A stretch of DNA of 37,373 nucleotides from Elusimicrobiota bacterium (GCA_027340875.1 DAIENX010000090.1:1-37373); one strand, 5' to 3'; shown: positions 1,665 to 22,704, numbered from the stretch's first letter. The notes: generated from the sequence alone by a model not told the origin. Numbers and translations are program-made.

Positions 1665-1690
1665 TGATCAGTCCTTTTTGTTCCCTGGGA

Positions 1691-2290: not shown

Positions 2291-2319
2291 ATCAGCTCTC
2301 CTCAAATAAATCAATCTGG

Positions 2320-2754
2320 TCAATCAGCCACCATAACGGTCAGGAACGCCGCGAAAGCCAGGCCGCCCACCAGAAGCACCGCCGCTTCAGGAGCCACTAC
2401 AGCCGCCAGTACCGCTGCGCCGACCACCAGCAGCCCGCCGCCTATCACGCGGGGGTCGGTGTAGGGGTTATCGAAGCCTTTGTTGGCGCCCGCGTTCATG
2501 CTCTTAAGTGCCGGGGGGGCCGTTACGCCAAGCTTGGCGTAATCCTTGGCCGGAGCGTTGACCCTGGCTTTTTCCACCGGCGCCAATTCCCCCTTTATCT
2601 CCACCGGGGAAGCCGCCGCCATGCGCGCGGCGGTCTGCATTTCGGAAAAAGTTTTGCCGCTGTCCATCCTGGAGCCTTCATAGTTATAGCCGGCGGCCGA
2701 GGCCGAGCCGGAAAGCGCCAGGGAAACCGTAAGGAGAAGTATCGTCTTTTTCAT
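2320..2754 (-). CDS. Hypothetical exported protein with C-terminal hydrophobic helices
   Basis: Signal peptide MKKTILLLTVSLALSGSASA, homologous to the leader of 8198..9610; C-terminal 40 aa strongly hydrophobic. Confidence 0.8.
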   Translation of the reverse strand: MKKTILLLTVSLALSGSASAAGYNYEGSRMDSGKTFSEMQTAARMAAASPVEIKGELAPVEKARVNAPAKDYAKLGVTAPPALKSMNAGANKGFDNPYTDPRVIGGGLLVVGAAVLAAVVAPEAAVLLVGGLAFAAFLTVMVAD

Positions 2755-2801
2755 AATTTTCGTCTGAACCAGTCCTTTGTTTTAAGTTCCGTCCACGATA
2801 A

Positions 2802-2926
2802 TATTTTAGCCCGCCCCTGGCCGGAACGCCTGAGGCGCGGGGCCCATCTATTCATGTTATTAGCCCCCCCGCTCCTGCCCCGGCGGCTTACGCCGGCAGG
2901 AGAACTAAAAACGATGTTTTATGACG
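2802..2926 (-). promoter_or_regulatory. Conserved upstream element, copy A
   Basis: + strand: TATTTTAGC(2802)-N17-GCCTGAGGC(2828)...GGCTTACG(ends 2892)...GTTTT-ATG-ACG(ends 2926); directly upstream of the gene starting at 2754. Confidence 0.75.
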
Positions 2927-2945
2927 CGGCAAACGGCTAAAGAGA

Positions 2946-2978
2946 GCCGCGCCCCCGGGGAGGCTCCGGGAGCGCGGC
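2946..2978 (-). terminator. GC-rich hairpin, probable intrinsic terminator
   Basis: GCCGCGCCCCCGG...CCGGGAGCGCGGC stem followed on the minus strand by TCTCTTT; homologous to the 9796..9826 hairpin. Confidence 0.6.
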
Positions 2979-3007
2979 GGGCCATTATCTCTTTCGACCT
3001 CTCCTGA

Positions 3008-3067
3008 TCACTTCGACGCGGTTTTGTATTCCAAAATCGTCGCCGTCGCTATCATTACTTTCTCCAT
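3008..3067 (-). pseudogene. 19-aa stub ORF (MEKVMIATATILEYKTASK), probable deletion remnant
   Basis: AAGGGA RBS; start resembles a signal-peptide n-region; followed by another AGGAGAGG RBS-like sequence just before the terminator. Confidence 0.35.
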
Positions 3068-3105
3068 GACTGTTTTTCCCTTATAAATATCGTTTTCCGC
3101 TAAAC

Positions 3106-3639
3106 TCACTTTAAGCTGCAACTCATCAGGACGGGAGCCTCGGGAGCCATATAATCGCCGTTATCAGAGTACACTGTAAAATAGGCCGGGAACGTTCCGG
3201 ACTGCCCGCCCGTAAATATGGCCTTCGGGAGAGAGAGTTCAAAACCTTCCCATGCGGTGGCGTCGCTGTAAAACTTCATAAACGAATATTTAGCCTCGTT
3301 GACGCGCATGATCCTCTCAAAGGTGAACTGCGCGGGCAGTTTTGTCGACATATTCAGCGGCAGACTGTCTTCAGGATCCGCCAGGACCAGCTTGGCTCCC
3401 TTCTCGCTTATAGTTCCCTTGAGCGCGGCTTTCTGTCCGGAAGAACACTCCAGCGACAGCCGCTTCGCTTTAGCGGCCGGGGCCTGGATCACGGCAGGCG
3501 CCGGTTCCGGCAGCTTTACGGATATCGCGCTGACTTCCCGAGGCGTCATCCTCTGCATGCCGGAGAAGTCGCCCGCAGACGCGCCGCAGACCGTCCCCAG
3601 TAGAATCGCTGCCAGCATTGTTTTTATCGTGTTATTCAT
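3106..3639 (-). CDS. Hypothetical secreted protein
   Basis: Signal peptide (MNNTIKTMLAAILLGTVCGASA), AAGGAG RBS, Pro-rich linker, Cys near both ends of the mature domain. Confidence 0.82.
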   Translation of the reverse strand: MNNTIKTMLAAILLGTVCGASAGDFSGMQRMTPREVSAISVKLPEPAPAVIQAPAAKAKRLSLECSSGQKAALKGTISEKGAKLVLADPEDSLPLNMSTKLPAQFTFERIMRVNEAKYSFMKFYSDATAWEGFELSLPKAIFTGGQSGTFPAYFTVYSDNGDYMAPEAPVLMSCSLK

Positions 3640-3733
3640 AATTTTCTTTTCTCCTTGTTCACCCGCTGTGCTGTATCGTTCTTCCCGGATCTGCTTGTCC
3701 AGGCGCGTGAAGGCTTTCTCCGGCCGGGCCGGC

Positions 3734-4648
3734 TTACTTGACCTTCAGCATGTCCACGGCGCCGATCTTCTCAAGACCGTCCACGGTCCGGCTGATCTCT
3801 ATGCGGGACTGCCAGCGCTGCATCTGCGAAGGTATGTTGTGGAGGGTGAGCGTGGTCACCAGTTCCAGCTTGCGGTCGGGACCGGCCTTGCGCGCCAGCA
3901 CGCCGCCTTTCAGCGACAGCGCCTTGAAACCGGCCAGGGACGGCTTGGCGTAGGAGTGGGGGTAGTTGTCGAAACTCTGCGTATTGTCCACGGAGGAGAC
4001 CAGGGCCATGCCGGGGGTCAGGATGTCGCGGTCCTCTACGAACTGGTTCATCAGCATGGCGTCCGGGTCGGCGGCCAGCTCCGAGCCGGCCAGCGGCTTG
4101 CCTTCCACCAGCACGTCAACTACGGCGTCGTTCATTTTGAGCAGGTTGACGGGAGTGTTATCGGCGGCGTAGCTCGCGAGGGCGGCTTTGCCCTGCATGC
4201 TGAGCGCGAAGAGCATGGTGTTGTCAGCCTTGGAATTGACGTAGACGGCCACGTCGAAGTTGTCCAACTTGGCGCCCTGGACGCCGTCGAAGGATTCGAT
4301 GGCCGGTATCAGCAGGCGGCCTGCGCCGTCTATCTCCACCGGAACGGTGCGGCTGCCGCAGACATGCGGCTGGGGCCAAAGGCCGGAGCGGTACATGCAG
4401 TTTACGACCAGCCTGGCCTTGTAGTCGGCCAGGTTGACGGAGTTCTGCTCAACCTGGAGCTGTACGGCCTTAGCCTGCAGCAGCACCTTCGCGGCGCTCT
4501 GCGCCTGCGGGATTGGCAGAACGTCGAAGGCGGAAGCCTTGGCCGCTATATCGGAGGCCTTCAGGCTCTGCAGGTCGGCCAGATCGGCCGCCTTGGCGCC
4601 CGCGGCGGCCAGCATCAGTATCATCGCTATCATTCCAGTCTTTTTCAT
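3734..4648 (-). CDS. Hypothetical secreted protein, paralog of 14195..15127
   Basis: Signal peptide; shares QLQVEQNSVNLADY, NCMYRSGLWPQPHVCGSR and HSYxKPSLA with 14195..15127; AAGGAG RBS. Confidence 0.88.
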   Translation of the reverse strand: MKKTGMIAMILMLAAAGAKAADLADLQSLKASDIAAKASAFDVLPIPQAQSAAKVLLQAKAVQLQVEQNSVNLADYKARLVVNCMYRSGLWPQPHVCGSRTVPVEIDGAGRLLIPAIESFDGVQGAKLDNFDVAVYVNSKADNTMLFALSMQGKAALASYAADNTPVNLLKMNDAVVDVLVEGKPLAGSELAADPDAMLMNQFVEDRDILTPGMALVSSVDNTQSFDNYPHSYAKPSLAGFKALSLKGGVLARKAGPDRKLELVTTLTLHNIPSQMQRWQSRIEISRTVDGLEKIGAVDMLKVK

Positions 4649-4690
4649 GATCTTCTCTCCTTATGTATGCCGGTTCGCCGGCCTCATTAA

Positions 4691-4816
4691 TAGTTTAGCT
4701 GTCCCGCGGGATTTCCGCCTGAGGCTGAGGTCACATCCCTGCGGCGTATTTCGCACTATTCGTTTTGCCCCGCCGGCTTACGTGGCGTGACGCGCCAGAA
4801 ACGCTGTTTCAGTACG
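4691..4816 (-). promoter_or_regulatory. Conserved upstream element, copy B
   Basis: TAGTTTAGC(4691)-N17-GCCTGAGGC(4717)...TTGCCCCGCCGGCTTACG(ends 4782)...GTTTC-AGT-ACG(ends 4816). Confidence 0.8.
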
Positions 4817-4961
4817 TGAAGCGGCCTTATAAAGGCACCTGGAAGCAGGAGACTCCGGCGGCGGTTCTGCGCCAACAGTCCGCTTACGGTGAAATCTACC
4901 TGTTTTGGGACCGCTTTTCCCAGGGCGGCCAGGGACCGGTCGTGAATATAGGACAAATAGA

Positions 4962-4999
4962 GGGGCGCAATACCCGGGCGAAGTCGAGTATTGCGCCCC
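4962..4999 (-). terminator. Hairpin downstream of 5021..6364, probable terminator
   Basis: Perfect 12-bp inverted repeat GGGGCGCAATAC / GTATTGCGCCCC, followed on the minus strand by TCTATTTGT. Confidence 0.65.
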
Positions 5000-5020
5000 C
5001 GTAACCCTGCCGGACCGCGC

Positions 5021-6364
5021 TTAGAGTGCGCAGGCGTTGGCGCGGATTATGAGCAGCTGCGCGTCGAGGGCCGCGGCTACGCTCTCCACCTCGTAACCGG
5101 ACAAGCGGGTATAGTCCGGGGTGCCGGCTATGGAAGCGGCCAGCTTGTGCAGACGGGCGGTGAAGCGCTCCATGCGCATAAGTTCCGTGCGCAGCGCCAT
5201 GCCGTCCAGCTCCCTTATGGCCTCCTCCATGCCGTACAGGGCGCCCTCGATGCCGAAGGAAGCGTCAGCCACGCCGCGCGTGTACGCCTCGGGCGCCTGG
5301 CCGTTGACGGCCATGGCCACGGTCTTGAGCCGCCCGGAGTGCATGCGCGACAGCCGCACGGCGCTGTCCAGGAAGGAATTGGGGGAGAGGCTCTTCTCCT
5401 GTGCCGCGCCGGTCTTATGCAGCGCGTCGTAGACGGGTTTGGCCACCACCACGTCCGTCACATAGTAATATTTGGCCAGGCCGAGGGCGGTGTCCGCCGC
5501 GTCCATCCCCGCCGCGTCCACTATGACCGTCCAGGGAAGCGTCCCGTGGACGGTTTTGAACTTATAGCCGGCCTTGGTCAGATCAGCGAAAACAATATCG
5601 ATGAATTGATTGTCGTCGATGTCCCAGGAGATGACCACTTTTATCTTGTCGTCGGCCATGTCGCCAGTTTTTATTTTGCGCAGGGCCATGTTCTGCTGGT
5701 TGTTCAGCTTCTTTTCAGACCTCTCCCGCATCTGGCCCACTATGAAGTCCCAGCAGGCCGGGGCCACGTCGTCGCTGCCCGCCCAGCCGGGGTTGGAGTA
5801 CTGGATGCCGCTGCTGGACAGTTCGTTCATGTCTACGGTGTAATTGTTATCGTAGTTGGAATCCCACTGCCCGTTGGCGAAGAAAGCCAGCTCTATCTTC
5901 TGTATCCCGCGGAAGCCCAGGTTGTCGGCCAGGGTGATGTAGTTCTCGTGGATCATCGCCGGGGTCATGAAGCCCGTGCCGTGCCACTCTTTGCCCAGCT
6001 CGATGTCGCGCGTGGACAGCTTGGTCCGGCCGTCCCCGCCGTAATACGAGACCATGACCCGCGCGGTTATCTTCTCGGCCCCGCCCAGGATGCCGCTTTT
6101 CTTATAGCCGATGATCAACCGCGTGTCCATCATGCCGCTGCCCACCGTGGCCAGCACGGCCGGGCCCCTGTTGACCACGTGCACCTTCTGATAACCGTAA
6201 TCCACCGGATAGTTGGACTTCTCCAGCTCCGGCATGGGGATGAAGACCCCTTCCTGCGCCTTAAGGTCGGCGGCCCTGAGGCCGTTGAGTTCCGCCCCGC
6301 CCGCGGCCAGAGCCGCGCCGGGCACCGCCGCCATCATCACCGCCAGCATTATCTTCTTGTTCAT
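5021..6364 (-). CDS. Secreted protein with CBM21/DUF6209-like WDxNY motif and a 106-aa inserted domain; paralog of 15182..16207
   Basis: Start set at MNKKIMLAVMMAA (6364) from the RBS and the paralog; IELAFFANGQWDSNYDNNY resembles starch/carbohydrate-binding module motifs; near-identical to 15182..16207 outside the insert. Confidence 0.85.
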   Translation of the reverse strand: MNKKIMLAVMMAAVPGAALAAGGAELNGLRAADLKAQEGVFIPMPELEKSNYPVDYGYQKVHVVNRGPAVLATVGSGMMDTRLIIGYKKSGILGGAEKITARVMVSYYGGDGRTKLSTRDIELGKEWHGTGFMTPAMIHENYITLADNLGFRGIQKIELAFFANGQWDSNYDNNYTVDMNELSSSGIQYSNPGWAGSDDVAPACWDFIVGQMRERSEKKLNNQQNMALRKIKTGDMADDKIKVVISWDIDDNQFIDIVFADLTKAGYKFKTVHGTLPWTVIVDAAGMDAADTALGLAKYYYVTDVVVAKPVYDALHKTGAAQEKSLSPNSFLDSAVRLSRMHSGRLKTVAMAVNGQAPEAYTRGVADASFGIEGALYGMEEAIRELDGMALRTELMRMERFTARLHKLAASIAGTPDYTRLSGYEVESVAAALDAQLLIIRANACAL

Positions 6365-6474
6365 TTGTTCCTGTCCTTTTCTGTGAGTTGATGGGGAACA
6401 GTGGTCTCCCCTGGTGTCCGGCAAAGCAGCTCTGCAACCGCCGGTCTTAGCGGCGCCCGCCTTCTGGCGCCGGG

Positions 6475-7149
6475 TCAGTTGCGGCACTTGACCGGCGCGA
6501 AGTAATAGGAGTAGATCTCTCCGCGGTTATCCCCGGGCACGATCCTGGTAATGATGTAGCCCGAATTCATCCTGACGGACATCACGCCCGTCTCCCAGTC
6601 AAGACCAAAGGATTCGGCGGCGGCGGAACCATTGGAGAATTTCGCCGGGTTCAGCGACACACGTGTGCTGCAGTAATCCACGACGAGCCGCTCTTCTCCG
6701 ATCTGGAACACCGCCGGGCCGTTTACGTTGAAGAGCGGCCCGCCGTCCGCGTAAGGGTTCGGCAGGGGCTGGCGTTGCCCGACAAACGCCGCGCGCATTA
6801 TCAGAGGTTTTCCGAGACCCATCATGAAAGACCTGCCCTCGAACATGCCGGTCAGGTCTGACTCCGAGGGTTGGGCGCCGGTATCGAACAGGCGCTTTAG
6901 TTCGACAAAAGGATTTGCCGGCCCCGCCGCGGCGTCTTTCAGCGCCGTTCCGGAGAACAGCGGCCCCGCGTCGTCCAGGACTTTGTCCAGGCAAGCCAGG
7001 CGCTCAATAGCGGCCGGTTCCGGGACTTTGATCTCTTCAGCCCTTTCCAGTTCCAGGCCGTTCATCGCGACGGCCGCTCTCTCCAGATCTCCGGCCCGGG
7101 CGGCGCCCGCGGCTGAAACAAGTATCAGTACCGCCAGTATCTTCTTCAT
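6475..7149 (-). CDS. Hypothetical secreted protein, divergent paralog of 16267..17010
   Basis: Leader MKKILAVLILVSAAGAARAGDLE; shared LFxxG...DLTG...GRxF, DxGPLF and C-terminal YxYYF motifs. Confidence 0.85.
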   Translation of the reverse strand: MKKILAVLILVSAAGAARAGDLERAAVAMNGLELERAEEIKVPEPAAIERLACLDKVLDDAGPLFSGTALKDAAAGPANPFVELKRLFDTGAQPSESDLTGMFEGRSFMMGLGKPLIMRAAFVGQRQPLPNPYADGGPLFNVNGPAVFQIGEERLVVDYCSTRVSLNPAKFSNGSAAAESFGLDWETGVMSVRMNSGYIITRIVPGDNRGEIYSYYFAPVKCRN

Positions 7150-7220
7150 AATTTATGTTTCTCCTTATATTTACCGGAACGCCTTGCCGTTGCTTGCCAG
7201 TCATTGTCCGGCTACATGTA

Positions 7221-7346
7221 TAGTTTATCCGCAAGGGGGCCTTTTCGCATGAGGCCGCGGTCCCGTCCCGGCGGCATATTTCGCACTACGCTCTTTGCCC
7301 CGCCGGCTTACGTCCGCGCACGAACTGCGATCGCTGTTTTGGCACG
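7221..7346 (-). promoter_or_regulatory. Conserved upstream element, copy C
   Basis: TAGTTTATC(7221)-N17-GCATGAGGC(7247)...TTGCCCCGCCGGCTTACG(ends 7312)...GTTTT-GGC-ACG(ends 7346). Confidence 0.8.
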
Positions 7347-7371
7347 CAGGCTGCCGCTACGCGCCCGCCCC

Positions 7372-7899
7372 TCACCGCATGCAGATATACTTGGCGAACG
7401 AGTAACCCGCGCCGGGGGTCTTTATATAACCGCCCATCTTCCCGTTCTTAAGCTTGTAGCCGCCGTCCATGAGCTGTTCCTCTGCGTAGAACTGGAACAG
7501 CGGGCCGTCGGCGTAGGAGCCGGAGTGCGGATCGACCACGTTGAATTTGCGGAACCCGACCAGCGAACTTCCGGCCTGGGGCGTGTAGCCCGGCACGGCG
7601 ACGTATTTTTCGGTGACGTAGTCCATCATGTCGAACGACAGGTACATGGTGTCCCGGCCGCTGAACCTCAGCGTCAGCTTCTCCAGATCGTACGGCTGGT
7701 TGTCGTCCACGCCGTAGCACTTAAATTTGAATTCCGCCCGCCTTTCCACCGCTGCCGCGGCCTTCGGGAGCGGCACCTCCGCCGCGGGCATAAGGGCCAG
7801 GTCCGCTGTCTTCATGCGCTGCAGGTCGGCAAGATCGGCCGCCTTGGCGCCCGCCGCCGCCAGCATCAGCATTACCACTATCATTCCGGTCTTTTTCAT
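7372..7899 (-). CDS. Hypothetical secreted protein
   Basis: Start set at ATG 7899 behind AAGGAGG; leader MKKTGMIVVMLMLAAAGAKAADLADLQ almost the same as that of 3734..4648, body unrelated. Confidence 0.85.
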   Translation of the reverse strand: MKKTGMIVVMLMLAAAGAKAADLADLQRMKTADLALMPAAEVPLPKAAAAVERRAEFKFKCYGVDDNQPYDLEKLTLRFSGRDTMYLSFDMMDYVTEKYVAVPGYTPQAGSSLVGFRKFNVVDPHSGSYADGPLFQFYAEEQLMDGGYKLKNGKMGGYIKTPGAGYSFAKYICMR

Positions 7900-7909
7900 G
7901 TTTTCCTCC

Positions 7910-8122
7910 TTAAAATCGCCGGTCTTGCCGGCCTGCCTCATCACTCCAGTAGCTGAATTCAGTCCGCGTTCTCCCCGCGGCTGCCGTATTCGGGATCCGT
8001 GCCCCTGCCGCCGGCGCCAGGCTCAGGTCCCTTGCCCTCAGGCGCTGCAGGTCGGCTATCTCGGCCGCCAGCGCGCCCGCGGCGATTCCCGCCATCACTA
8101 CCGCTATGATCAGTCCTTTCAT
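7910..8122 (-). pseudogene. Leader-only 70-aa ORF, probably a truncated paralog of 7372..7899
   Basis: ADLQRLRARDLSLAPAAGARIPNTAAAGRTRTEFSY aligns with ADLQRMKTADLALMPAAEVPLPKAAAAVERRAEFKF; the ORF ends just where the mature domain would begin. Confidence 0.65.
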
Positions 8123-8197
8123 GGTGTCTTCTTCGCTCCCCGCTTTCCTCCGGCCCGCCGCGCTGACCGGAGGTCTTCTTCTTCACTCTTCCGCGTC

Positions 8198-9610
8198 TCA
8201 GTCGCTGTCGCTTTCCACGATGCACTCCATGTAGTGGTAGGTCTGGGTCATGTCGGCGCCGGGGCCGGGGTCCACGCAGCTGCCGGCCGGGACGTCCTTC
8301 ATGATCTTCAGGAACTCGTCCCACCTGGTGGCTCCGGCCCAGGCCAGCTGGTCGTATCTGCGGTTATAGCCCTTGAACGGCAGGTATACGGCCAGGCCGT
8401 TGGAATGGCCGGCGGGCAGGTTGACGGTGGCGGCGTCGATAAGAAGCCTGTCGCGCAGGACCGTCATCAGGTTTTCGGCCCTGCCGGCCAGCGCGGGATC
8501 CGCTTTGGCCGTCCTGGCGGCAAAATCATACAGATCGCGGTTGTCATCATAGGCATAATGGCTGGTGCGGAAAATCTTCAGTTTCAGCCGCGGCTTCAGG
8601 TCGGAACCCAGCAACGCGTCGGTCCAGTTGTTGAAGGCGTCCATGAATTCCGGCAGGGCGGACATGCGTACCGCGGAGATAGTGACCTTGTCCTTGCGGG
8701 AGCCGTAGAAGCCGGCATAAGCGCGCACCATGGCGGCGGCCAGCTGTTCCGGGCTCTTTTGGGCGGCGGCGAACTCCGGCAGGAAGCCGTCGTAGGGGAA
8801 GCCGAAGCCCGGCACGGTCTCTTCGGAGCCCACCACGTAGTCCGCGTGACCCTTGACCTCGTAAAGCAACTCCGCCATCTGCATCAGGCAGGCGTCGTAG
8901 GCCAGTATGTCCACCTTCCCGATGGCGCGCAGGGCGGCGCCAAGCTCGGGGGTGGAGATATGGTTCTTGGTCTCATAGTCGTATGAGATCCCTTTGGTCA
9001 TCTCTGCGGGTACGGTGTCCTTGGAGGTGATCCAGCCGGAGCCGTGGTTCCAGATTATCAGGGCGTAATGGCGGGCGGGGAAGTTCTCCATGCCCCAGCG
9101 GGCGAAGTCAACAAGGTGCCGCCAGTCGCCCATGTCCACGTTCGCGAAAGACTGCAGCTCGGGGGAACTTATCGTCATTTCGTCGGTGTCTAGGGTAACG
9201 TAGTAGCGGCGCGAGCCGGTCCAGTCGCCGTCGAAGTGCACGTCGTTATCCTGCCCGTTCATGCGTCCTATCTCGGTGACGATATTGAGCGAATCCCCGG
9301 AACCGGTAAGTTCCATCTTGTTGAGGTTGTAAAGACCGGCCACCTCCAGATCGTTCTTGCCGTTTACATAGACTAACACGGTCCATTCCTTAAGCGGCTG
9401 AGGAAGGACGGGGGATATGGCCTGGGCCTGCGGCTGGATCCAGCCGAAAGCGCCTTTAGCCGGGACCGGCGCGGGAATAGCGGGATCAGTCGGACTGCCG
9501 CTCCTCGCGCGCAGGGTCTCAAAAGCTCGGCCGCGTCCTGCCGCCAGGGCCGGAATCGAGAGCGCCAGGGAAACCATCAGGAGAAGTATCGCCTTTTTCA
9601 TGATTTTCAT
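8198..9610 (-). CDS. Clostripain-related cysteine peptidase (family C11), secreted, second copy
   Basis: Signal peptide; EWTVLVYVNGKNDLE, IIWNHGSGW, YDACLMQ and GSEETVPG motifs; AAGGA RBS favours ATG 9610; short two-Cys C-terminal tail. Confidence 0.92.
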   Translation of the reverse strand: MKIMKKAILLLMVSLALSIPALAAGRGRAFETLRARSGSPTDPAIPAPVPAKGAFGWIQPQAQAISPVLPQPLKEWTVLVYVNGKNDLEVAGLYNLNKMELTGSGDSLNIVTEIGRMNGQDNDVHFDGDWTGSRRYYVTLDTDEMTISSPELQSFANVDMGDWRHLVDFARWGMENFPARHYALIIWNHGSGWITSKDTVPAEMTKGISYDYETKNHISTPELGAALRAIGKVDILAYDACLMQMAELLYEVKGHADYVVGSEETVPGFGFPYDGFLPEFAAAQKSPEQLAAAMVRAYAGFYGSRKDKVTISAVRMSALPEFMDAFNNWTDALLGSDLKPRLKLKIFRTSHYAYDDNRDLYDFAARTAKADPALAGRAENLMTVLRDRLLIDAATVNLPAGHSNGLAVYLPFKGYNRRYDQLAWAGATRWDEFLKIMKDVPAGSCVDPGPGADMTQTYHYMECIVESDSD

Positions 9611-9648
9611 TTGAGCCAGTCCTTTGCCTGAAGTATCGTCCACAACTA

Positions 9649-9773
9649 TAGTTTAGCCAATGCCCGGCTGGAAAGCCTGAGGCGCGTGGTCCCTTTATCC
9701 ATGTTATTGGCCCCCCCGCCCTTACCCCGGAGGCTTACGCGCGGCCGAGTATCAAAACCGAGGTTTTGCAACG
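9649..9773 (-). promoter_or_regulatory. Conserved upstream element, copy D
   Basis: TAGTTTAGC(9649)-N17-GCCTGAGGC(9675)...TTACCCCGGAGGCTTACG(ends 9739)...GTTTT-GCA-ACG(ends 9773). Confidence 0.8.
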
Positions 9774-9790
9774 CCGGCGGCAGCATGAAG

Positions 9791-9826
9791 AAAAACCGCG
9801 CCCCCGGGAAGGCCCCGGGGGCGCGG
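9791..9826 (-). terminator. Rho-independent terminator after 9867..10445
   Basis: 13-bp perfect stem CCGCGCCCCCGGG / CCCGGGGGCGCGG, then TTTTTCTT on the minus strand. Confidence 0.8.
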
Positions 9827-9866
9827 CGGACCGTGGCGGACGCCATGGTCTGCTGGAGCAATACGG

Positions 9867-10445
9867 CTACTCGCGGCAGGCCTCGTTGTCCATTATCGGC
9901 GCCGGGGAAAGCGACAATTCCGAAACCATTATGGAGTACGTCTTCACCGTTTCCGCCACGCCCCTCACCAGTATCCTCGCCTCGTACGAGGGACCGCCGC
10001 CGCAGGACCATTCTACGGTATCCATAGCCGCCGCCGTATCCGCGTCCAGGCGCTGCGCCACGTATTTCCTGGCGCTCTTGATAGCCTGCGGGCTGTCCGG
10101 GATCCTTTCAAGCTCGTACCTCTTGATAAGCTCCCATTTATCCCCCGCCGCAGAAACGCGGCGTACCAGGATATCCCCGTATGAGTCTCCCTCGTCGGAA
10201 ACCGTAAGCTCTATCTTGACGTCCTTTGAGAGGAACCGCTTGCGGGCCATAGCCTTGAACTTTCCCATGTCCTCATACGCGCTCTTCTCTCCGCCGGCGG
10301 CTTCGACATAGGCCGGCACTGCCGGGACCTTCGCCGCTTCCAGCTGGGCCGGAGTGAAGCCGAAGCTTTCCAGGCCGCCGCCGGCATAAGCCGCGCCCGA
10401 GGTTATCAACGTCAGAACCGCCGCGAGTATCGCATTCTTTTTCAT
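9867..10445 (-). CDS. Hypothetical secreted protein
   Basis: Signal peptide MKKNAILAAVLTLITSGAAYA; GGAG RBS; followed by a terminator. Confidence 0.82.
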   Translation of the reverse strand: MKKNAILAAVLTLITSGAAYAGGGLESFGFTPAQLEAAKVPAVPAYVEAAGGEKSAYEDMGKFKAMARKRFLSKDVKIELTVSDEGDSYGDILVRRVSAAGDKWELIKRYELERIPDSPQAIKSARKYVAQRLDADTAAAMDTVEWSCGGGPSYEARILVRGVAETVKTYSIMVSELSLSPAPIMDNEACRE

Positions 10446-10483
10446 CTCATTGTCTCCGTGTCCTTGTCTGGCTTCCCGTGCTC

Positions 10484-11500
10484 TCAGTACTGGCGGCAGC
10501 CGTAGAAGTCGTGCTGCGCGAGCCGCTTTATGGAATCAGGCGCGAGCAGGCCGTCATCCATGTTGAGCATTCTTCCGTAAAAGATCTCTACGGACGCCCT
10601 GTCGCCGAACACCTGAAGGGTAATCAGCCGCTCCGAGGCGTAATCGTAAGTGGAGAAAGCGGAGTTCCACTTAACGCGCCCCCCGATGAGGATCAGCTCA
10701 TCGTTGCGCCAGACCCCGGTGTTAGGGTTGAGGTTGGGCAGATTGCTCCCCAGGTTGTAGAACGCGTTGTTGACGTTCCTTAACACAAGCTGCTTTCTGG
10801 GCCTGCTCCCCTCAGAAATATCCAGCGTCAGGCCGTCGCATTTGACAACGGGGCGCCAGGTCGTCCCGGCGGAGCGCTCTTCGGCGGATCCGGCTGAAAC
10901 GTCGGCGCTCTTGATATCGTCCTCTATAGTATGTCCCACGGGGTAACCGTAGAGCTGGGCTGGCAGCAGCTTCTTCTTGACGGCGTCCTTGTACGCCTTC
11001 TCGCTGCTGAAAGTCACCACGATCGCCTGTTCGCCGCCGTGCCCGAGCACCTTAAGCCCGGTCACGCCCGGTATAGCCATGAGCTGCGCCCTGTGCATCT
11101 CCATGACCGCGGAGGCCGAAAGAGGGGCTATCTTGTCATTCTCTATCGTATGTCCCACGGGGTAACCATAGAGCTTAGCGGGCAGCAGCTTCTTTTTGAC
11201 GGCGTCCTTGTACGCCTTCTCGCTGCTGAAGGTGACCACGATCGCCTGCTCGCCGCCGTGCCCGAGCACCTTAAGGCCGGTCACGCCGGGTATGGCCATG
11301 AGCTTGGCGCGGTGCATCTCCAGGACCTCCGCGGCCGAAAGAGGAACTATTTCCGGCCTCGGAACTGCGACCTTCGCCTCCATGGCTTGAGTCATATTGA
11401 CCCTCTCAAGCGAAACGGCCGCGGCCGCTTTTTCAAGATCACCGGCGCGGACTACGCCCGCCGCGGAGACCAGTACCAGCATCGCTATCATCTTTTTCAT
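10484..11500 (-). CDS. Secreted protein with two tandem 73-aa repeats
   Basis: Leader of the AGDLE type; RBS spacing favours ATG 11500 over 11509; internal duplication LMAIPGVTG...AIVVTF...LP..LYGYPV. Confidence 0.85.
   Translation of the reverse strand: MKKMIAMLVLVSAAGVVRAGDLEKAAAAVSLERVNMTQAMEAKVAVPRPEIVPLSAAEVLEMHRAKLMAIPGVTGLKVLGHGGEQAIVVTFSSEKAYKDAVKKKLLPAKLYGYPVGHTIENDKIAPLSASAVMEMHRAQLMAIPGVTGLKVLGHGGEQAIVVTFSSEKAYKDAVKKKLLPAQLYGYPVGHTIEDDIKSADVSAGSAEERSAGTTWRPVVKCDGLTLDISEGSRPRKQLVLRNVNNAFYNLGSNLPNLNPNTGVWRNDELILIGGRVKWNSAFSTYDYASERLITLQVFGDRASVEIFYGRMLNMDDGLLAPDSIKRLAQHDFYGCRQY
10921..11345. repeat. Intragenic tandem duplication, 219-bp period, two copies
   Basis: About 10921..11126 and 11140..11345 are near-identical (shadow ORFs start at 10977 and 11196, offset 219). 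Confidence 0.92.
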
Positions 11501-11573
11501 AATTTCCATTTCTCCTTATTGTGTTACCGGAAGCGCCTTGCCGTTGTTGTCCTCTATCGTCCGGCTGTATACA

Positions 11574-11698
11574 TAGTTTACGCTGCGAGCGGCCTTCTCG
11601 CATGAGGCCATGGTCCCGGAGAACGGCATTTTTCGCACTACCGCCGTTGCCCCCCCGGCTTACGCCCGCGCACGGACCATATCCGAAGTTTTAGTACG
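11574..11698 (-). promoter_or_regulatory. Conserved upstream element, copy E
   Basis: TAGTTTACG(11574)-N17-GCATGAGGC(11600)...TTGCCCCCCCGGCTTACG(ends 11664)...GTTTT-AGT-ACG(ends 11698). Confidence 0.8.
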
Positions 11699-11771
11699 TT
11701 TACGTACGCGGCGCATGCGGTGCTCATCATCGTTTTCCTCATGACTTCCCTTCTCGCTCGCCCGTCCGTCG

Positions 11772-11992
11772 GTCGCCGTCGAAGTGCGCGTCGTATCCTG
11801 CCCGTTCATGCGGCCTATCCCGGTGACGATACTGAACAAATCCCCGGAACCCGCGGGGATAGCGGGATCAGCCGGACTGCCGCTCATCGCGCGCAGGGGC
11901 TACGGAACTCCTCCGCGTCCTGCCGCCAGGGCCGGCGCCGCGAACGACATAGAAACCGTCAGGAGAAGTATCGTTCTTTCCATGCTTTTCAT
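11772..11992 (-). pseudogene. Clostripain pseudogene derived from a gene like 8198..9610
   Basis: MKSMERTILLLTVSMSFAAPALAAGRGGVP* (TAG at 11900-11902), then SGSPADPAIPA fused to GSGDLFSIVTGIGRMNGQD (55-codon deletion), a 1-nt frameshift and loss of the rest. Confidence 0.88.
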
Positions 11993-12030
11993 TTGAGCCC
12001 GTCATTTTCCTGAAGTACCGTCCACAACTA

Positions 12031-12155
12031 AAGTCTAACCAGCGCCCGGCTGGATAGCCTGGGGCGCGGAACATATTTGTCTATGTAATTGGACCCGTGG
12101 TCCTTACCCGGCAGGTTCACACGGGCTGGCGGACGAAAAAGCAAGTTTTTGGACG
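12031..12155 (-). promoter_or_regulatory. Conserved upstream element, copy F (decayed)
   Basis: AAGTCTAAC(12031)-N17-GCCTGGGGC(12057)...TTACCCGGCAGGTTCACA(ends 12121)...GTTTT-TGG-ACG(ends 12155); same spacing, three boxes mutated. Confidence 0.7.
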
Positions 12156-12184
12156 CCGAAAAGCGTGCGTCTGGAACGCCGCGC

Positions 12185-13084
12185 CTACCATGCGGCCATC
12201 CCGGAGCCGCCGGTGAACCAGATATAATCGGCCGGCGGCGGGGCTATCTCCGCCGGCTTCCCGGGAGCGGCGGCGCCGGAGACGTAAACTGAGACCTGCG
12301 AGATCCCCGGCACAGCGGATTTTATCCGGGCCGGCACCCCCGCGTTGTACATTATCCGTCCGTTGCCGGTCAGCACCAGCAGGGAATAGTCCGGATTTTC
12401 GCCCAGAAAGCAGATAATGCGCGCGGCCAGCGCCGCGTTCCAGGCTGAAATGGAGAACAGATAGTTCTCCCACTCGGTCCTTTTCGCCGCGCTGCCCGCG
12501 TAAAAGCTTCTTTTTAAATACGCCAGGTACGGCTTATCCGCGTTCATGCGGATATCCTGCGGCAGCATCGCCCTTTCGCCCCGGTCAAGGGAAGCTATTC
12601 CGCCCTGCGCCAGCTTCGCGGGCAGGCCGCGCGGCAGATCAAGGGCCAAGACCTTCAGCTTATGTTCCCGGATATAAACGAAAAGCGGCTTGTACGGCGT
12701 GAAAGCGGCTTGTCCGCTCCAGGCGGAGCCTGACAGGAACTCCTTCTCCGGTATCCGGCCCGCGAGATAGCCGTCCAGCAGACGCTGGCTGCCTGAAGGC
12801 ACCATTTCCAGCCCTACCGCGACGCGGCCGCGCGCTTTTACCATCATATCGAGTATCTCTAGCCTGGCCAGCTGGCTTCTGGCGGATCCGCCGACCTCTC
12901 CGGCGTAAACCACGCGGGCGCCGCTTACCGCGTCCTCGAAAGCTGCCCTGGAAAGCCTGGTGCCGACGCGGGGATTGACCACGGCGAAGACGGGACTGTC
13001 GAACATCGAGAACGAAGGGGCGCCGGCGGCCGCGCGGCCTGGGCCGCCCGCCAGCAGCAGGGAAAAGCAAAGCACCGCTCTCAT
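12185..13084 (-). CDS. ChaN/DUF399-like exported protein (EreA/ChaN fold), degenerate motifs
   Basis: RVVYAGE, VAVGLEM, LDGYLAGRI.EKEFL, YKPLF, LAQGGIASL and LTGNG...GVPARI follow the ChaN pattern; N-terminal signal peptide. Confidence 0.75.
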   Translation of the reverse strand: MRAVLCFSLLLAGGPGRAAAGAPSFSMFDSPVFAVVNPRVGTRLSRAAFEDAVSGARVVYAGEVGGSARSQLARLEILDMMVKARGRVAVGLEMVPSGSQRLLDGYLAGRIPEKEFLSGSAWSGQAAFTPYKPLFVYIREHKLKVLALDLPRGLPAKLAQGGIASLDRGERAMLPQDIRMNADKPYLAYLKRSFYAGSAAKRTEWENYLFSISAWNAALAARIICFLGENPDYSLLVLTGNGRIMYNAGVPARIKSAVPGISQVSVYVSGAAAPGKPAEIAPPPADYIWFTGGSGMAAW

Positions 13085-13112
13085 ATGTCCGTCATCCTGA
13101 TCTCCGTGCGGC

Positions 13113-14003
13113 TCAGACTTCCCAATATATGAACGCGCTCGCCGGGAACCGCACGAGCTGCGCCAGCTTCTCCCGGCCGAGGCTGCGCTCTATGGCCAGC
13201 GCCTTGTGGCAGCCCGCGATATAGAACAGCCGCTCCCTGGACAATTCCTCAAGTATCCGGTCCCTGAACCCTCCGGTGAGCGCCTCTTTTGAGCGCGCCT
13301 CCAACTCCCAGAGCAGCGCGTCGAAAACGCGCAGTTTTTTCTCCAGGTCTCCCGCGCTCTCCAGAACGGAATAGTCGCGCGCGTCCAGCGCGCCCGCGCT
13401 CCTGCGCTTTTCGTAGGGGACCAGGGTGGCCAGGCCCTCGTTCATGGTGAATTCCATCACGAATTCCTTAAGATCCCCAACCGTCCTCGCGGCGGCCAGG
13501 TCCGGCAATCCGCGATAATATTCGAAACCCAGGTGGAAAAGCTCGTGCGGCAGGGAAAGGAGGAGTTCCCGTCTGTCCGCCAGGAAGCGCCCGTCGTTAA
13601 GGTTCACTACCACCTGCCCGTCCAGCGCTATACCGTCGCAGCCTCCCAGCGCGAATCGCACCACGGCCGTCTCGCAATAATCCTGCGGCAGATACCGCAG
13701 GTGCAGGGACAGGAACTCGTCGCGGATGGCAGGCTCGTTCTCCTTCAGGTATTTCAAGGCGGCCGCCAGTCCGGCGCGGTTCCCGGCAAGCCCGCCCAGA
13801 CCCGCTTCGGGAGAGCCTTTTCTGAAAGCCTGCGCCAGGGTTTGCGCGGAAAGCGGCCTGGAACAGTATCTGCGGCTGTGACTGACAATAAGCCGGTAGG
13901 CGGTATGCCCGAGCAGTTCTTTCAGTTTCCCGGGCGCGGGACGCTCAAGATACTCCAGCGCGGCCTCGGCCGCGGAGTAGTCCATCTCCACCTTTTGCGC
14001 CAT
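13113..14003 (-). CDS. Putative Zn-dependent protease (DUF5700/DUF2268-like)
   Basis: HELFH plus downstream NEGLA third-ligand motif; no signal peptide. Confidence 0.72.
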   Translation of the reverse strand: MAQKVEMDYSAAEAALEYLERPAPGKLKELLGHTAYRLIVSHSRRYCSRPLSAQTLAQAFRKGSPEAGLGGLAGNRAGLAAALKYLKENEPAIRDEFLSLHLRYLPQDYCETAVVRFALGGCDGIALDGQVVVNLNDGRFLADRRELLLSLPHELFHLGFEYYRGLPDLAAARTVGDLKEFVMEFTMNEGLATLVPYEKRRSAGALDARDYSVLESAGDLEKKLRVFDALLWELEARSKEALTGGFRDRILEELSRERLFYIAGCHKALAIERSLGREKLAQLVRFPASAFIYWEV

Positions 14004-14005
14004 AG

Positions 14006-14170
14006 TTATGAAGTTACAGGCAAACCGGCGGACTTCGGAACTTCCCAGGCGCCCAGCTCGGAAGCAGTCCCCTTTATCCAGAAGTCATCGGCTGCCGCGA
14101 TGAAAGCCCTGTCCCGCGGGGAGGCGGCAGCCAACAGGACCAGCGCCCCTGTCACTACGACATCCCTCAT
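14006..14170 (-). pseudogene. 54-aa leader-like stub ORF
   Basis: Not in the ORF track. GGAGGAG RBS, then MRDVVVTGALVLLAAASPRDRAFIAAADDFWIKGTASELGAWEVPKSAGLPVTS*; fills the gap between two genes. Confidence 0.5.
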
Positions 14171-14194
14171 ATTCTCCTCCGTCCGCCCGCGTTC

Positions 14195-15127
14195 CTAGTA
14201 CGCCTTCACGAGGTCGAGCCGCACTATCCGCTGCAGCCCGTCTACAGACCTCTCTATTTTCGCGCGGCCGCGGTAGCTCTCGGTCACCGTGTATGCCGTG
14301 CCCAGCCGGAGATCTGCAAAGAGCGACCAGCCGCGGGGGCTGTCCGCCCACTCGACCATCACCGCGGAGCCGAACTCCAGCGCCCGGAAAGCGGCCAATG
14401 AAGGCTTGGGATAACTGTGCTGGGCGTTATCCAGGCTCTGTATCCCGGTAAGGGGGGTCGCCAGCACCACCGGGTCTATGTCTTCGCCCGGGACGTGCGC
14501 GCTGTCGACGAAGGCCATGAACCTGGAGCTCTGGTCCTGCGCCATAGCGGAACCGGCCAGCGGCTTGCCTTCCACCAGCACCTCCACCTTGGCGGCGTTG
14601 AGCTTCAGCAGGCTGATGGCGCCGGTCTTGCGCGCGTAGGCAGCCAGGCCTTTCCTGCCGCTGGCGCCCAGCGTGAACAGCCAGTCGCGCGGATCGCCCT
14701 TTCTGGCGACGGTCACGCGCAGATCGAAGTTGTCGGGGTTCGCGCCGCGCGGGCCGTCGAACGCCTCGATGGGCGGCAGTATAAGCCTGCCGTCGGACGT
14801 TATTTCCACCGGCAGAACGCGGCTGCCGCAGACGTGCGGCTGCGGCCACAGGCCGGAGCGGTACATGCAGTTTACGATCAGCGTGGCCTCGTAATCCGCC
14901 AGGTTCACGGAATTCTGCTCCACCTGGAGCTGCATGGTCTTGGCGTCCACCAGCGTCTTGCCTTGCGCGTTTCCATGAACGCCGGGAAGCGCCGCCTCTA
15001 TCCCGGCCAGACCGGCCCTTATGCCGGCGGCGGTGACCCCGCCCAGCGCGTCGAAATCCGCCGCCCTCGCTCCGCCGGCCATGCACAGCACGGCCACGAT
15101 CATCAGATATTTTTTCATATTAGACAC
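14195..15127 (-). CDS. Hypothetical secreted protein, paralog of 3734..4648
   Basis: Signal peptide MKKYLMIVAVLCMAGGARA (start GTG 15127 or ATG 15118); shared body motifs with 3734..4648. Confidence 0.88.
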   Translation of the reverse strand: MSNMKKYLMIVAVLCMAGGARAADFDALGGVTAAGIRAGLAGIEAALPGVHGNAQGKTLVDAKTMQLQVEQNSVNLADYEATLIVNCMYRSGLWPQPHVCGSRVLPVEITSDGRLILPPIEAFDGPRGANPDNFDLRVTVARKGDPRDWLFTLGASGRKGLAAYARKTGAISLLKLNAAKVEVLVEGKPLAGSAMAQDQSSRFMAFVDSAHVPGEDIDPVVLATPLTGIQSLDNAQHSYPKPSLAAFRALEFGSAVMVEWADSPRGWSLFADLRLGTAYTVTESYRGRAKIERSVDGLQRIVRLDLVKAY

Positions 15128-15181
15128 TCTTCAGGTGGTCTCCTTTATATTTTCCATGCCCCGCGCGCTTTCCCCGGCAGC

Positions 15182-16207
15182 CTACAGGAGACTGGCGTTG
15201 GCACGGATGATGAGCAGCTGCGCGTCGAGCGCCGCTGCCGCGCTCTCCACCTCGTAGCCCGACAACCTGGTATAGTCCGGGGTGCCGGCTATGGAAGCGG
15301 CCAGCTTGTGCAGGCGGGCAGTGAAGCGCTCCATGCGCGTAAGCTCCATACGCAGCGCCATGGCGTTGCGCTCCTTTATAGCCTCCTCCATGCCGTACAG
15401 GGCGCCCTCTATGCCGAAAGAGACGTCGCCCACGCCGCGCGTGTACGCCGCCGGGACCTGGCCGTTGATCGCCATGGCCACGGTCTTGAGCCGCTCGGAG
15501 TGCATGCGTGACAGCCGCACCGCGCTGTCCAGGAAGGAATTAGCCGGGAGCCCCTTTTCCGGCATATCCCGCATCTGGGCCACGATGAAGTCCCAGCACT
15601 GCGGGGCCACCTCATTGCTGCCCGCCCAGCCGGGGTTGGAGTACTGGATGCCGCTGTTGGACAGATCGTTCATGTATACGGTGTAATTGCTGCCGTAGTT
15701 GGAATCCCACTGGCCGCCCGCGAAGAAAGCCAGCTCTATCTTCTGTATCCCGCGGAAGCCCAGGTTGTCCGACAGGGTGATATAGTCCTGGTGGATCATG
15801 GCCGGGGTCATGAAGCCGGTGCCGTGCCACTCCTTGCCCAGCTCGACGTCGCGCGTGGACAGCTTGGTCCGGCCGTCCCCGCCGTAATACGAAACCATGA
15901 CCCGCGCGGTTATCTTTTCCGCCCCGCCCAGGACGCCGCTCTTCTTATAGCCGATGATCAACCGCGTGTCCATCATGCCGCTGCCGACGGTGGCCAGCAC
16001 GGCCGGGCCCCTGTTGACGAGGTGCACCTTCTGGTAGCCGTAATCCACCGGATAGTTGGACTTGACCAGTTCCGGCATGGGGATGGAAACGCCTTCCTGA
16101 GCCCTGACGTCCCCGGCCTTCAGGCCGTTCAACTCCGCCCCGCCCGCGGCCAGCGCCGCGCCGGGCGCCGCCGCCATCATCACCGCCAGTATCATCTTCC
16201 TGTTCAT
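15182..16207 (-). CDS. Secreted protein with CBM21/DUF6209-like WDSNYGSNY motif; paralog of 5021..6364
   Basis: Signal peptide, GGAGG RBS, near-identity to 5021..6364 but without its insert. Confidence 0.88.
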   Translation of the reverse strand: MNRKMILAVMMAAAPGAALAAGGAELNGLKAGDVRAQEGVSIPMPELVKSNYPVDYGYQKVHLVNRGPAVLATVGSGMMDTRLIIGYKKSGVLGGAEKITARVMVSYYGGDGRTKLSTRDVELGKEWHGTGFMTPAMIHQDYITLSDNLGFRGIQKIELAFFAGGQWDSNYGSNYTVYMNDLSNSGIQYSNPGWAGSNEVAPQCWDFIVAQMRDMPEKGLPANSFLDSAVRLSRMHSERLKTVAMAINGQVPAAYTRGVGDVSFGIEGALYGMEEAIKERNAMALRMELTRMERFTARLHKLAASIAGTPDYTRLSGYEVESAAAALDAQLLIIRANASLL

Positions 16208-16266
16208 TCTGTTATCCTCCTGATAATTTTTTCCTGCACCGCCGCTCTCTTGTCTGCCGGCCTTCT

Positions 16267-17010
16267 TCAGTCGCGCGGGGTCAAGTCCATAAAATAATAG
16301 GTATAGAGCGTCTTCAATATACGCCCGGAGGCGGTATCCTTCTCGGTGAACTTCTCGACCAGATATTCCCCGGCTTTCCGTTCCTCGATGATCTGCTGGA
16401 TACCGTTGTTCCAGTTCATGACAGCCCGGGCTTCCGGGAAAATCATATAGTTGCGCTGCGGAGACTCCGGATGGCGGCGGACCCCGAAGGCGAAACTATA
16501 GTAATACGGATACTGGAAGAGGTGCTCTAGGCCTTTAAGCGCCCTTTTGTTGTAGTACTCGATGTCGTTCTCTATAAAACCGATCGCGAACCTCTCCTTG
16601 CCGGAAGAGCCGAACAGCGGGCCCTCGTCCGTTGCGCCGGCCGCCTCGTACTCCGATACCTTGACCACCATTCCTATCATGGCGCCCTTGGCGACCGTGC
16701 CGGCGGCCGTGAAAGTGCGGCCGGCCTTAATGCCGGTCAGGTCGGCCTGGGTGGCCGGGACGCCGCGCTCGAACAGGGCCTTCACCTTTTCGTAGCTGGT
16801 GGCGCCGGGCAGCCCCAGCAGTTCGCTGGGAGCCGTCTTGTCCATTTCGCCCAGCGCTGCGGCGGCGGAAGGTTCCGGGACCTTCATGTCCGCGGCCCGT
16901 TCCAGTCTGAGGTCAGTCAGGGCGGCCGCGGAGGCGGCGCTCTCCAGGTCCCCGGCCCGGGCGAGGCCCGCTGCCGAGACCAGTATCAGTATTGTCAGTA
17001 TCTTTTTCAT
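16267..17010 (-). CDS. Hypothetical secreted protein, divergent paralog of 6475..7149
   Basis: Start set at MKKILTILILVSAAGLARAGDLE (17010) behind GGAGGAGAAGAGG; shared motifs with 6475..7149. Confidence 0.85.
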   Translation of the reverse strand: MKKILTILILVSAAGLARAGDLESAASAAALTDLRLERAADMKVPEPSAAAALGEMDKTAPSELLGLPGATSYEKVKALFERGVPATQADLTGIKAGRTFTAAGTVAKGAMIGMVVKVSEYEAAGATDEGPLFGSSGKERFAIGFIENDIEYYNKRALKGLEHLFQYPYYYSFAFGVRRHPESPQRNYMIFPEARAVMNWNNGIQQIIEERKAGEYLVEKFTEKDTASGRILKTLYTYYFMDLTPRD

Positions 17011-17088
17011 TTCCTCTTCTCCTCCTATGAGTCCCGGATTCGCGGAGCGCCTTGCCGTCATTTGTCCGCTGTTCTCCGGCCGTGTATA

Positions 17089-17214
17089 TAGTTTAGCCGC
17101 AAGCGGCCTCCCTCGCCTGAGGCGGCGGACCCGACCCGGCCCTGTATTCTTTCCCATAGCTTTTGCCCGGGCGGCTTACGCGCCGGAATGCAGTAAAAAC
17201 GCGGATTAGTTACG
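17089..17214 (-). promoter_or_regulatory. Conserved upstream element, copy G
   Basis: TAGTTTAGC(17089)-N17-GCCTGAGGC(17115)...TTGCCCGGGCGGCTTACG(ends 17180)...GATTA-GTT-ACG(ends 17214). Confidence 0.8.
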
Positions 17215-17330
17215 CGAAGCGGCGGACCCGAAAGACCCGTGAACCTGATCGGGGGGACCGGGAAGACCTGAAACTTTATGGACCGCGGCGCATCTAATAG
17301 ATGAGACCCGACTTTCGCAAGGACGCAAGA

Positions 17331-19760: not shown

Positions 19761-19767
19761 CGTTCAC

Positions 19768-20844
<1,077 letters not shown>

Positions 20845-20880: not shown

Positions 20881-22704
<1,824 letters not shown>

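Follow-up and report, generated by a model that had tools for sequence, protein, structure and literature searches.

Reassorted leaders and a linked promoter-like element in secreted-protein gene islands of an Elusimicrobiota bacterium

How do genes for unrelated secreted proteins come to begin with the same sequence? This question is raised by a stretch of 37,373 nucleotides (nt) from an Elusimicrobiota bacterium (GCA_027340875.1, DAIENX010000090.1:1-37373), hereafter the window, which corresponds to contig C53 in a genome bin of 2.8 Mb and 92% completeness. Window positions 408-17010 form an island of minus-strand genes, named here by their lower coordinates, most of which have signal-peptide-like starts as judged by a crude charge/hydropathy rule that was applied to the whole genome and its relatives. 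An initial annotation recognized three leader families, (i) to (iii), on unrelated protein bodies and proposed that a unit of terminator, promoter, ribosome-binding site (RBS), and leader is copied in front of different cargo domains. The island contains leader and domain mosaics with variable junctions, as well as a conserved promoter-like element that is linked to secreted-protein genes and to genes of a helix-turn-helix (HTH) protein family. We explain these features by shuffling of 5' ends within islands, combined with an activator-dependent promoter element and an HTH regulator, an account to which we assign a probability of roughly 0.7.

The coordinates and numbers of the initial annotation all hold, including the 72 of 80 nt that are identical between 4570-4649 and 7821-7900 in the family (i) leaders of genes 3734 and 7372, and the 5' untranslated region (UTR) common to family (ii), CGCCTTGCCGT, which is present at 7180, 11534, and 17048. 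Self-comparison of the window gave blocks at 4559-4684/7810-7934 (84% identity), 9460-9741/11844-12123 (79%), 2711-2983/9558-9832 (78%), 7071-7325/11422-11677 (76%), and 7010-7312/16865-17180 (70%). As a background, the first 75 nt of 285 signal-peptide-like genes were compared in the 40,338 pairs that lack a BLAST hit between bodies, for which the mean identity is 56% and the 99.9th percentile 70.7%. The corresponding values in the window are 89% for 3734/7372, 77% for 2320/8198 (calculated separately, the gene caller having placed the start of 8198 internally), 75% for 6475/10484, and 73% for 10484/16267. The eight top pairs among the 40,338 (79-95%) all involve the window island or a second island at 14-39 kb of contig C66, and ranks 9-22 consist of pilin-type leaders and chance pairs, with two further family (ii) pairs among them. 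In family (iii), 2320 and 8198 do share a leader as proposed, but over 14 codons only. Synonymous codons are identical at 15/19 and 19/21 positions in the recent pairs. Public-run contigs with 0-1 letter differences cover 4380-5137 and 6113-8903 in three of four runs, all from a single study and two possibly the source of the present DNA; as far as tested, the 3734/7372 leader sharing is no assembly artefact. At position 9365 the window has T and all four runs have G, possibly an assembly error in the window.

The second island carries the leader family MKT..IPSDLRDA on a paralog of the 3734 body (B1), on a clostripain (Pfam C11 peptidase), and on three other bodies; together, the two islands hold four or more leader families. 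The 221 signal-peptide-like genes of the fetched loci include 23 leader families with at least two members; 11 of these occur with two or more body families, although one of them, L22, is a contig-end artefact. Same-genome swaps are also found in the relatives G012 and G002 (91% and 96% nucleotide identity). The leaders are all of one extended type that is present genome-wide; a model trained on relatives only scored 37 of 559 signal-peptide-like proteins at 20 bits or more, compared with 3 when the tail was shuffled. Beyond its leaders, the second island (L001:14160-19131; L002 = G000:C66:11000-42500) has six promoter elements and HTH genes. Its IPSDLRDA family appears membrane-anchored, with related motifs in G041, G016, and G002, and the genes C66:19234 and 26184 (L002) are 97% identical over their first 94 residues, one of them being short (137 aa). 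Pseudogenes and orphan leaders occur in both islands.

The bodies behind these leaders are distinct. That of 7372 falls in a family of its own (43 representatives at E 0.001) and is confidently modeled as a beta-barrel (pLDDT 94.8), and B1 is a 250-aa unit that is 40-49% conserved in two paralogs and two relatives. A profile comparison of the two gave a match probability of 0.1%, and because the bodies are 40-50% conserved in other species, they are not merely fast-evolving. The alternative of fast-evolving homologous folds, raised in the initial annotation, thus failed for this pair. Nor are leader and body trees congruent for the 3734 family and the clostripains. In a tree of 13 clostripain bodies, 8198 (support 100/99) and C66:16752 (100/100) join paralogs located elsewhere that carry other leaders; clostripain-family paralogs number at least 13 in the genome, and their leaders vary. 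In the five-member B1 tree, 14195 groups with C66:15715, and their leaders fall in different clades. The earlier designation of 14195 as the body paralog of 3734 is correct in that both are B1, but the nearest relative of 14195 in the genome is C66:15715.

These findings bear on the view that no swapping occurred, such that whole genes were duplicated, the bodies diverged past recognition, and the leaders stayed alike through selection or convergence. The genome-wide leader type would fit such a history, as would the near-background synonymous identity of family (ii). However, the bodies are unrelated to those of their leader partners while remaining conserved between species, one leader sits on both a C11 peptidase and B1, and the recent pairs agree at synonymous codons. 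Profiles and trees refute this view for families (i), (iii), and C66, and it could survive for the oldest pairs only; overall, we consider it very improbable.

For the 7372 barrel, the best fold matches tie at Z 7.7 among Gid4, haemoglobin linker, and PliC (rmsd 2.8, 76 residues), and no function is claimed because the arrangement is common. An Atlas search with this body found nothing above 0.86, and named homologs are from Elusimicrobia. The barrel is the second domain in P0003-P0005; a guess that the first domain of P0005 equals domain Y of 5021 was unconfirmed (E 0.39). In at least 15 of 22 aligned homologs, the barrel directly follows the signal peptide. About 30-60 additional residues separate the two in 7372, P0007 (named Elusimicrobiales), P0008, and P0028.

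The extent of the shared segments varies. Relative to the start codon, the common blocks span -36 to +90 nt in 3734/7372 (86% identity), -176 to +79 in 6475/10484, -229 to +44 in 2320/8198, and -11 to +112 or +202 in the C66 family. Junctions thus lie at codons 14-67, mostly 26-39, and the upstream reach ranges from -11 to about -230 nt. Thirteen same-genome pairs with unrelated bodies were compared, 11 of them from the present genome and six from one leader family. The block ends at codons 26-39, ahead of the Pro linker, in 11 pairs and at codons 58 and 67 in the other two, and only 4/13 extend more than 90 nt upstream. As the initial annotation described, elements A and D are each preceded by a terminator-like hairpin (2946-2978 and 9795-9827); the two are alike over 229 nt upstream, hairpin included, and the terminator is carried along for this pair only. 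In family (i), identity ends 36 nt upstream and 7372 has no element, which contradicts the promoter sharing that had been proposed; the nearest match to element B of 3734 is the family (ii) element C (76% over 106 nt). Across 13 copies, the similarity between elements is hardly related to that between leaders (Mantel rho 0.19, p 0.053). Reassortment of 5' modules onto unrelated bodies is therefore supported by the mosaics and incongruent trees, but, given the variable ends, neither a set unit nor a single consistent breakpoint near the linker is supported.

A fixed cassette of terminator, promoter, RBS, and leader, moved by a dedicated site-specific or retro-type system with the element as recombination site, could account for the strictly conserved element spacing, its palindrome-like boxes, the upstream segment common to A and D, and the 5/13 same-genome junctions at codons 37-39 (all in one leader family). 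Against it, the junctions lie inside the coding sequence, away from the element, and neither family (i) nor the C66 family carries an element. Matches to two tyrosine and three serine recombinases all fall outside C53 and C66, and the 92%-complete genome yielded no reverse transcriptase. A cassette of this kind is largely refuted already by the variable ends, and we judge it highly unlikely. Neither a linked recombinase nor a conserved junction site was found in the islands, the window contig being cut at position 1. The lack of a recombinase gene in either island instead makes ordinary duplication, deletion, and gene conversion the likely cause. No attC-like ends of integrons were seen on reading the sequence, and no insertion sequence was noticed at the junctions, although no systematic search was made. 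A recent duplication of three genes (G-15182-14195 to C-5021-3734) was rejected, as the identities are 39%, 80-86%, and 47% and 14195 has its closest relative on C66.

The shuffling includes internal domains and not leaders alone. Gene 5021 equals 15182 plus a 100-aa domain that is also found in C66:38151, and 10484 and C66:36084 have the start and a repeat in common but not the C-terminus. Short similar words flank both the deletion in pseudogene F and the insertion in 5021. In line with the proposal that related genomes would show different leader-body pairings, G041 joins the leader of gene 1 to the body of gene 2 of an operon in G016/G042, with the switch between codon 24 and about codon 38, at or before a common LP-x-P linker. 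A further chimera in G042 (L035:17523-18530) fuses one body to the C-terminal half of B1.

Elements A-G align without gaps except for one base over 134-135 nt. Their boxes are, in order, CG..CAAAA-N5-TTTT; CGTAAGCC-N4-GGGCA; an AATA-like box; the near-palindrome GCCTCAGGC; and TA[AG]A[AC]T. In 12 of 13 copies, boxes 2 and 4 are 58-59 nt apart and box 4 lies 26 nt from the terminal hexamer; the remaining copy lacks the box 4 pattern. Genome-wide, this hexamer class peaks at -12 and -13 before ATG (70 and 42 of 2230 genes, with 22 or fewer at other positions), which identifies it as the -10 box; in three relatives, it lies 5-8 nt before the start codon. The 112/2230 ATG genes with such a hexamer at -12/-13 also suggest that many transcripts are leaderless. 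At the -35 position, the element matches at most 3/6 and overlaps the palindrome. Most copies escape a sigma-70 scan, as they lack a -35, and a sigma-28 reading of TAAA..GCCG was rejected, given a spacing of 11 nt instead of the 15 nt typical of that factor and the absence of GCCG in A/D/F. The element is accordingly promoter-like, and an activator is probably required, as the -10 hexamer is not accompanied by a -35. The genome contains 14 full-length copies (seven in the window, 13 in the two islands, and one on contig C11), 13 of which belong to the training set of the model, and weaker half matches precede other secreted genes.

An alternative is that the element acts at the RNA level, as a structured leader or small RNA. 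The consensus allows two short helices to be drawn. However, it folds at only -3.9 kcal/mol with seven pairs and one two-sided change, and the eight weak Rfam matches are all far from the gathering score. Moreover, the spacing is preserved to 1 nt although the spacers vary in sequence, and the element terminates in a -10 hexamer. Such an RNA role is hardly credible.

By sequence model, the element was found in 29/42 genomes of the genus and 22/59 of the family, compared with 0/61 in two other families. Among 48 matches in 40 fetched loci, 31 precede a signal-peptide-like gene, 13 have no gene call, and 24 are within 5 kb of a gene for an HTH protein. These proteins, of about 280 aa, form an uncharacterised family of Elusimicrobiales that is distantly similar to DUF4423. 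Six of ten members matched DUF4423/winged-helix families weakly (best E 0.0035), and the first member scores 17 bits against DUF4423 (PF14394), below the Pfam cut-off of 30 bits. The family occurs in 35/59 family genomes and 0/61 outside; the titles of 79 HTH loci name Elusimicrobi* in 74 cases, "bacterium" in four, and WWE3 in one. In these HTH-anchored loci, 43 element matches were found versus none in reversed decoys (E 0.1), 33/79 loci have an element within 4 kb, and in 22 it is directly adjacent (13 divergent and nine downstream). Open reading frames (ORFs) after these elements are signal-peptide-like in 31/34 cases, compared with 577/2428 for the whole genome. Copy numbers of element and HTH genes are correlated (rho 0.86, 27 genomes), the arrangement recurs in other genera (G062, G068), and the three genus genomes without an HTH match also lack the element. 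The related genomes are non-independent samples, and the element-anchored and HTH-anchored locus sets overlap. On the basis of this gene linkage, the HTH family is a candidate binder of the element, which we hold to be somewhat on the probable side. One HTH gene copy, at C66:32240-33961, is a tandem fusion.

Several points weigh against our explanation. At synonymous codons, the other family (ii) leaders agree with 10484 at only 8/17 and 8/16, near the background of 42%, so that the family (ii) case is old and rests mainly on the common 5' UTR. Only 5 of 27 branches in the leader tree (105 nt) are well supported. The model of 3734 has low confidence (pLDDT 45), for which reason non-homology of the 3734 and 7372 folds rests on profiles and size more than on models; a fold search with this model gave no match at E 0.001. 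The G041 event is unpolarised as to direction. For the regulator, 46/79 HTH loci have no element, G067 and G100 have the element but no listed HTH match, and the window, whose contig ends at position 1, has no HTH gene, the nearest being on C66, C11, and C111. As the genomes are related and the locus sets overlap, the association is one of linkage and not proof of binding. The absence of HTH genes from the window and the many HTH loci without an element, together with the pseudogenes and orphan leaders, would also suit a scenario in which the swaps, although real, arise incidentally from the instability of a tandem island, the element serves as an ordinary regulon promoter under a global factor, and the HTH genes are mere passengers of these islands. 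However, the direct adjacency of element and HTH genes, its recurrence in other genera, and the joint absence of both in three genomes argue against passengers, and we regard this scenario as unlikely, about one chance in five.

We therefore favor shuffling of 5' ends with activator-dependent expression. The window contains one of the genome's two dense islands of short genes for secreted proteins, the genes beginning with a lineage-typical leader composed of a signal peptide, a segment of about 15 residues, and an Ala/Pro-rich linker. Local duplication, deletion between neighbors, and patchy gene conversion would cross over within leader or linker, presumably by ordinary homologous or microhomology-led recombination and with no dedicated enzyme. 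Recently copied 5' ends would thereby be placed on unrelated domains, as the mosaics and incongruent trees show, and the promoter would travel too whenever an operon's leading gene acted as donor. The element probably needs an activator, the likely binder being the HTH family, and any domain landing behind such a 5' end would be exported and, in part, co-regulated. A more speculative extension, which we think rather unlikely, is that the post-signal segment serves as an Elusimicrobiales-specific sorting or surface-anchoring tag. Together with an HTH-activated, phased promoter, it might form a portable module for export, placement, and co-regulation, and reassortment might be selected for recruiting domains to an inducible surface or prey-attack arsenal. 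The extra residues in 7372, P0007, P0008, and P0028, relative to most homologs, are a hint of such a tag.

Several known systems share parts of this organization. In PMC10016077, the erp genes of Borrelia burgdorferi (OspE/OspF/Elp) are described as one promoter/operator, leader, and short sorting sequence on many independently derived bodies, co-expressed and recombining. A common leader on bodies of independent origin is present here as well, as is a conserved promoter before operons (seven copies in the window), although not on every gene that shares a leader. In contrast to the single ancestral erp leader at an allelic locus of cp32 prophages, the present leader families are spread over two chromosomal-type islands adjoining housekeeping genes, and the promoter is only sometimes carried along. 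The leaders also end in Ala-x-Ala-type sites without the lipoprotein cysteine, and the candidate regulator belongs to an unrelated family. For type III effectors, PMC3191145 and PMC2935791 describe terminal reassortment, in which a promoter box and N-terminal export signal are fused to another, unrelated gene by largely unregulated recombination. Here too, a promoter and N-terminal signal sit on unrelated 3' parts with variable junctions, but the signal peptides appear to be of the Sec type and the bacterium is of a free-living, environmental type. The model of Stavrinides et al. (2006) reportedly includes orphan 5' termini.

Polymorphic toxins (Rhs/MafB/CDI), to which the initial annotation had likened the locus, have a conserved 5' part, exchangeable old 3' parts, and fragments nearby (PMC2935791). 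This analogy is weak. There is no long conserved carrier and no downstream string of C-terminal cassettes, downstream genes carry their own leaders, and orphan pieces in both islands are mostly 5' ends; the two window orphans (7910-8122 and F, the latter with an internal clostripain piece) are 5' leaders and not silent C-terminal cassettes. No toxin or immunity family matched among 17 window and 17 C66 proteins (Pfam) or 12 proteins (NCBIfam), most bodies being without a family. By analogy, the locus appears closer to erp genes and effector terminal reassortment than to polymorphic toxins, and it is a member of neither.

The HTH family resembles DUF4423/HTH_3 proteins of Bdellovibrionota, as Atlas neighbors at 0.90-0.96 are Bdellovibrionota clusters, several with DUF4423; the two nearest clusters, in contrast, are Elusimicrobiota without a Pfam family, and the element-linked proteins fall below the Pfam cut-off. 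A DUF4423 protein is among those raised during growth in prey (PMC12546842), and no description of a binding site was found among the DUF4423/TIGR02147 papers listed. In the sludge set of PMC11495043, predicted extracellular proteins are fewest in Elusimicrobiota, Patescibacteria, and Dependentiae, whose genomes there average 1.36 Mb. The present 2.8-Mb genome seems richer in signal-peptide-like genes, but the figures are not comparable because our rule is much cruder. No description of the element, the HTH family, or the leader swaps was found among the papers listed in the literature searched, which included few subscription papers.

Features of the island are given in the table. Pfam families were found in 5 of 17 window proteins scanned (two clostripains, ChaN-like, DUF5700, and a flanking rhodanese); in Pfam and NCBIfam, the secreted bodies of the window and C66 have no family except clostripain. 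The tandem 73-aa repeats of 10484 (10916-11353) are 90% identical in nucleotides, and they may resemble protease prodomain-like modules, a likeness that Pfam did not confirm. A gene truncated by the contig end (1-333) is 77% identical to C66:11218 and has Gly/Asn/Pro repeats, and the island probably continues beyond position 1. On the other side, 18558-37359 presumably encodes pilus assembly ATPases and a membrane protein, tRNA ligases, RecN, DNA ligase, and NusB, judging from their motifs. Elsewhere in the bin, the contig pairs C11/C77, C13/C29, C30/C81, C56/C85, C57/C76, and C6/C51 contain near-duplicate housekeeping genes (about 87-95% nucleotide identity over 5' ends), probably from a second strain or species.

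Table. Genes, promoter-like elements, and hairpins of the secreted-protein island, in window coordinates.
Position	Strand	Feature	Basis
17086..17220	-	Promoter-like element G, 134-135 nt, ends in -10 box	alignment
16267..17010	-	Secreted protein, leader (ii), body homologous to 6475 (39%, aa 1-156)	
15182..16207	-	Secreted protein, domains X+Z, 88-90% nt identical to 5021 outside insertion	
14195..15118	-	Secreted, B1 body (paralog of 3734, C66:15715); leader MKKYL related to orphan leader C66:37046	
12028..12161	-	Promoter-like element F	
11772..11983	-	Pseudogene F: 8198 leader joined by internal deletion to later 8198 piece; stop after 27 codons	
11571..11704	-	Promoter-like element E	
10484..11500	-	Secreted, leader (ii), unrelated body: two 73-aa repeats + C-terminal domain; start as C66:36084	
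9867..10445	-	Secreted protein, generic extended leader, no Pfam family	
9795..9827	-	Terminator-like hairpin upstream of D, paralogous to 2946-2978	
9646..9779	-	Promoter-like element D	
8198..9601	-	Clostripain-family peptidase (PF03415), leader (iii); nearest body paralog C95:2911, other leader	
7910..8122	-	Orphan leader, 70-codon ORF: diverged tandem copy of 7372 5' end (73%, 130 nt)	
7372..7899	-	Secreted, leader (i), 122-aa beta-barrel with terminal cysteines, no own element	
7218..7352	-	Promoter-like element C	
6475..7149	-	Secreted protein, leader (ii)	
5021..6364	-	Secreted, domains X+Y+Z; Y (about aa 221-315) also in C66:38151 and on C65	
4961..5000	-	Terminator-like hairpin upstream of B, unrelated to A/D hairpins	
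4688..4822	-	Promoter-like element B, closest to C	
3734..4648	-	Secreted, leader (i), codons 1-30 common with 7372, on B1 body	
3106..3639	-	Secreted-type protein downstream of 3734, no Pfam family	
2946..2978	-	Terminator-like hairpin upstream of A	
2799..2932	-	Promoter-like element A	
2320..2754	-	Small exported protein, first 14 codons as 8198; G049 homolog with same mature start, other signal peptide	
408..1664	-	Second clostripain-family peptidase, unrelated leader	

The reassortment has a practical consequence, as N-terminal similarity would falsely link unrelated proteins in these genomes; a homolog search with 7372 matched 3734 through the leader alone. For the biology of the organism, the islands would offer a clear example from a non-pathogen in which 5' export modules and small domains have been shuffled to build a secretome, through events recent enough to be mapped. 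The promoter-like element is previously unlisted and appears to travel with its own candidate family of DNA-binding proteins. A binding site established here could inform the Bdellovibrionota as well, since they hold related HTH/DUF4423 proteins. Taken together, the HTH family and the 134-nt element constitute a candidate regulator-site pair that may mark a secreted-protein regulon across an uncultured family.

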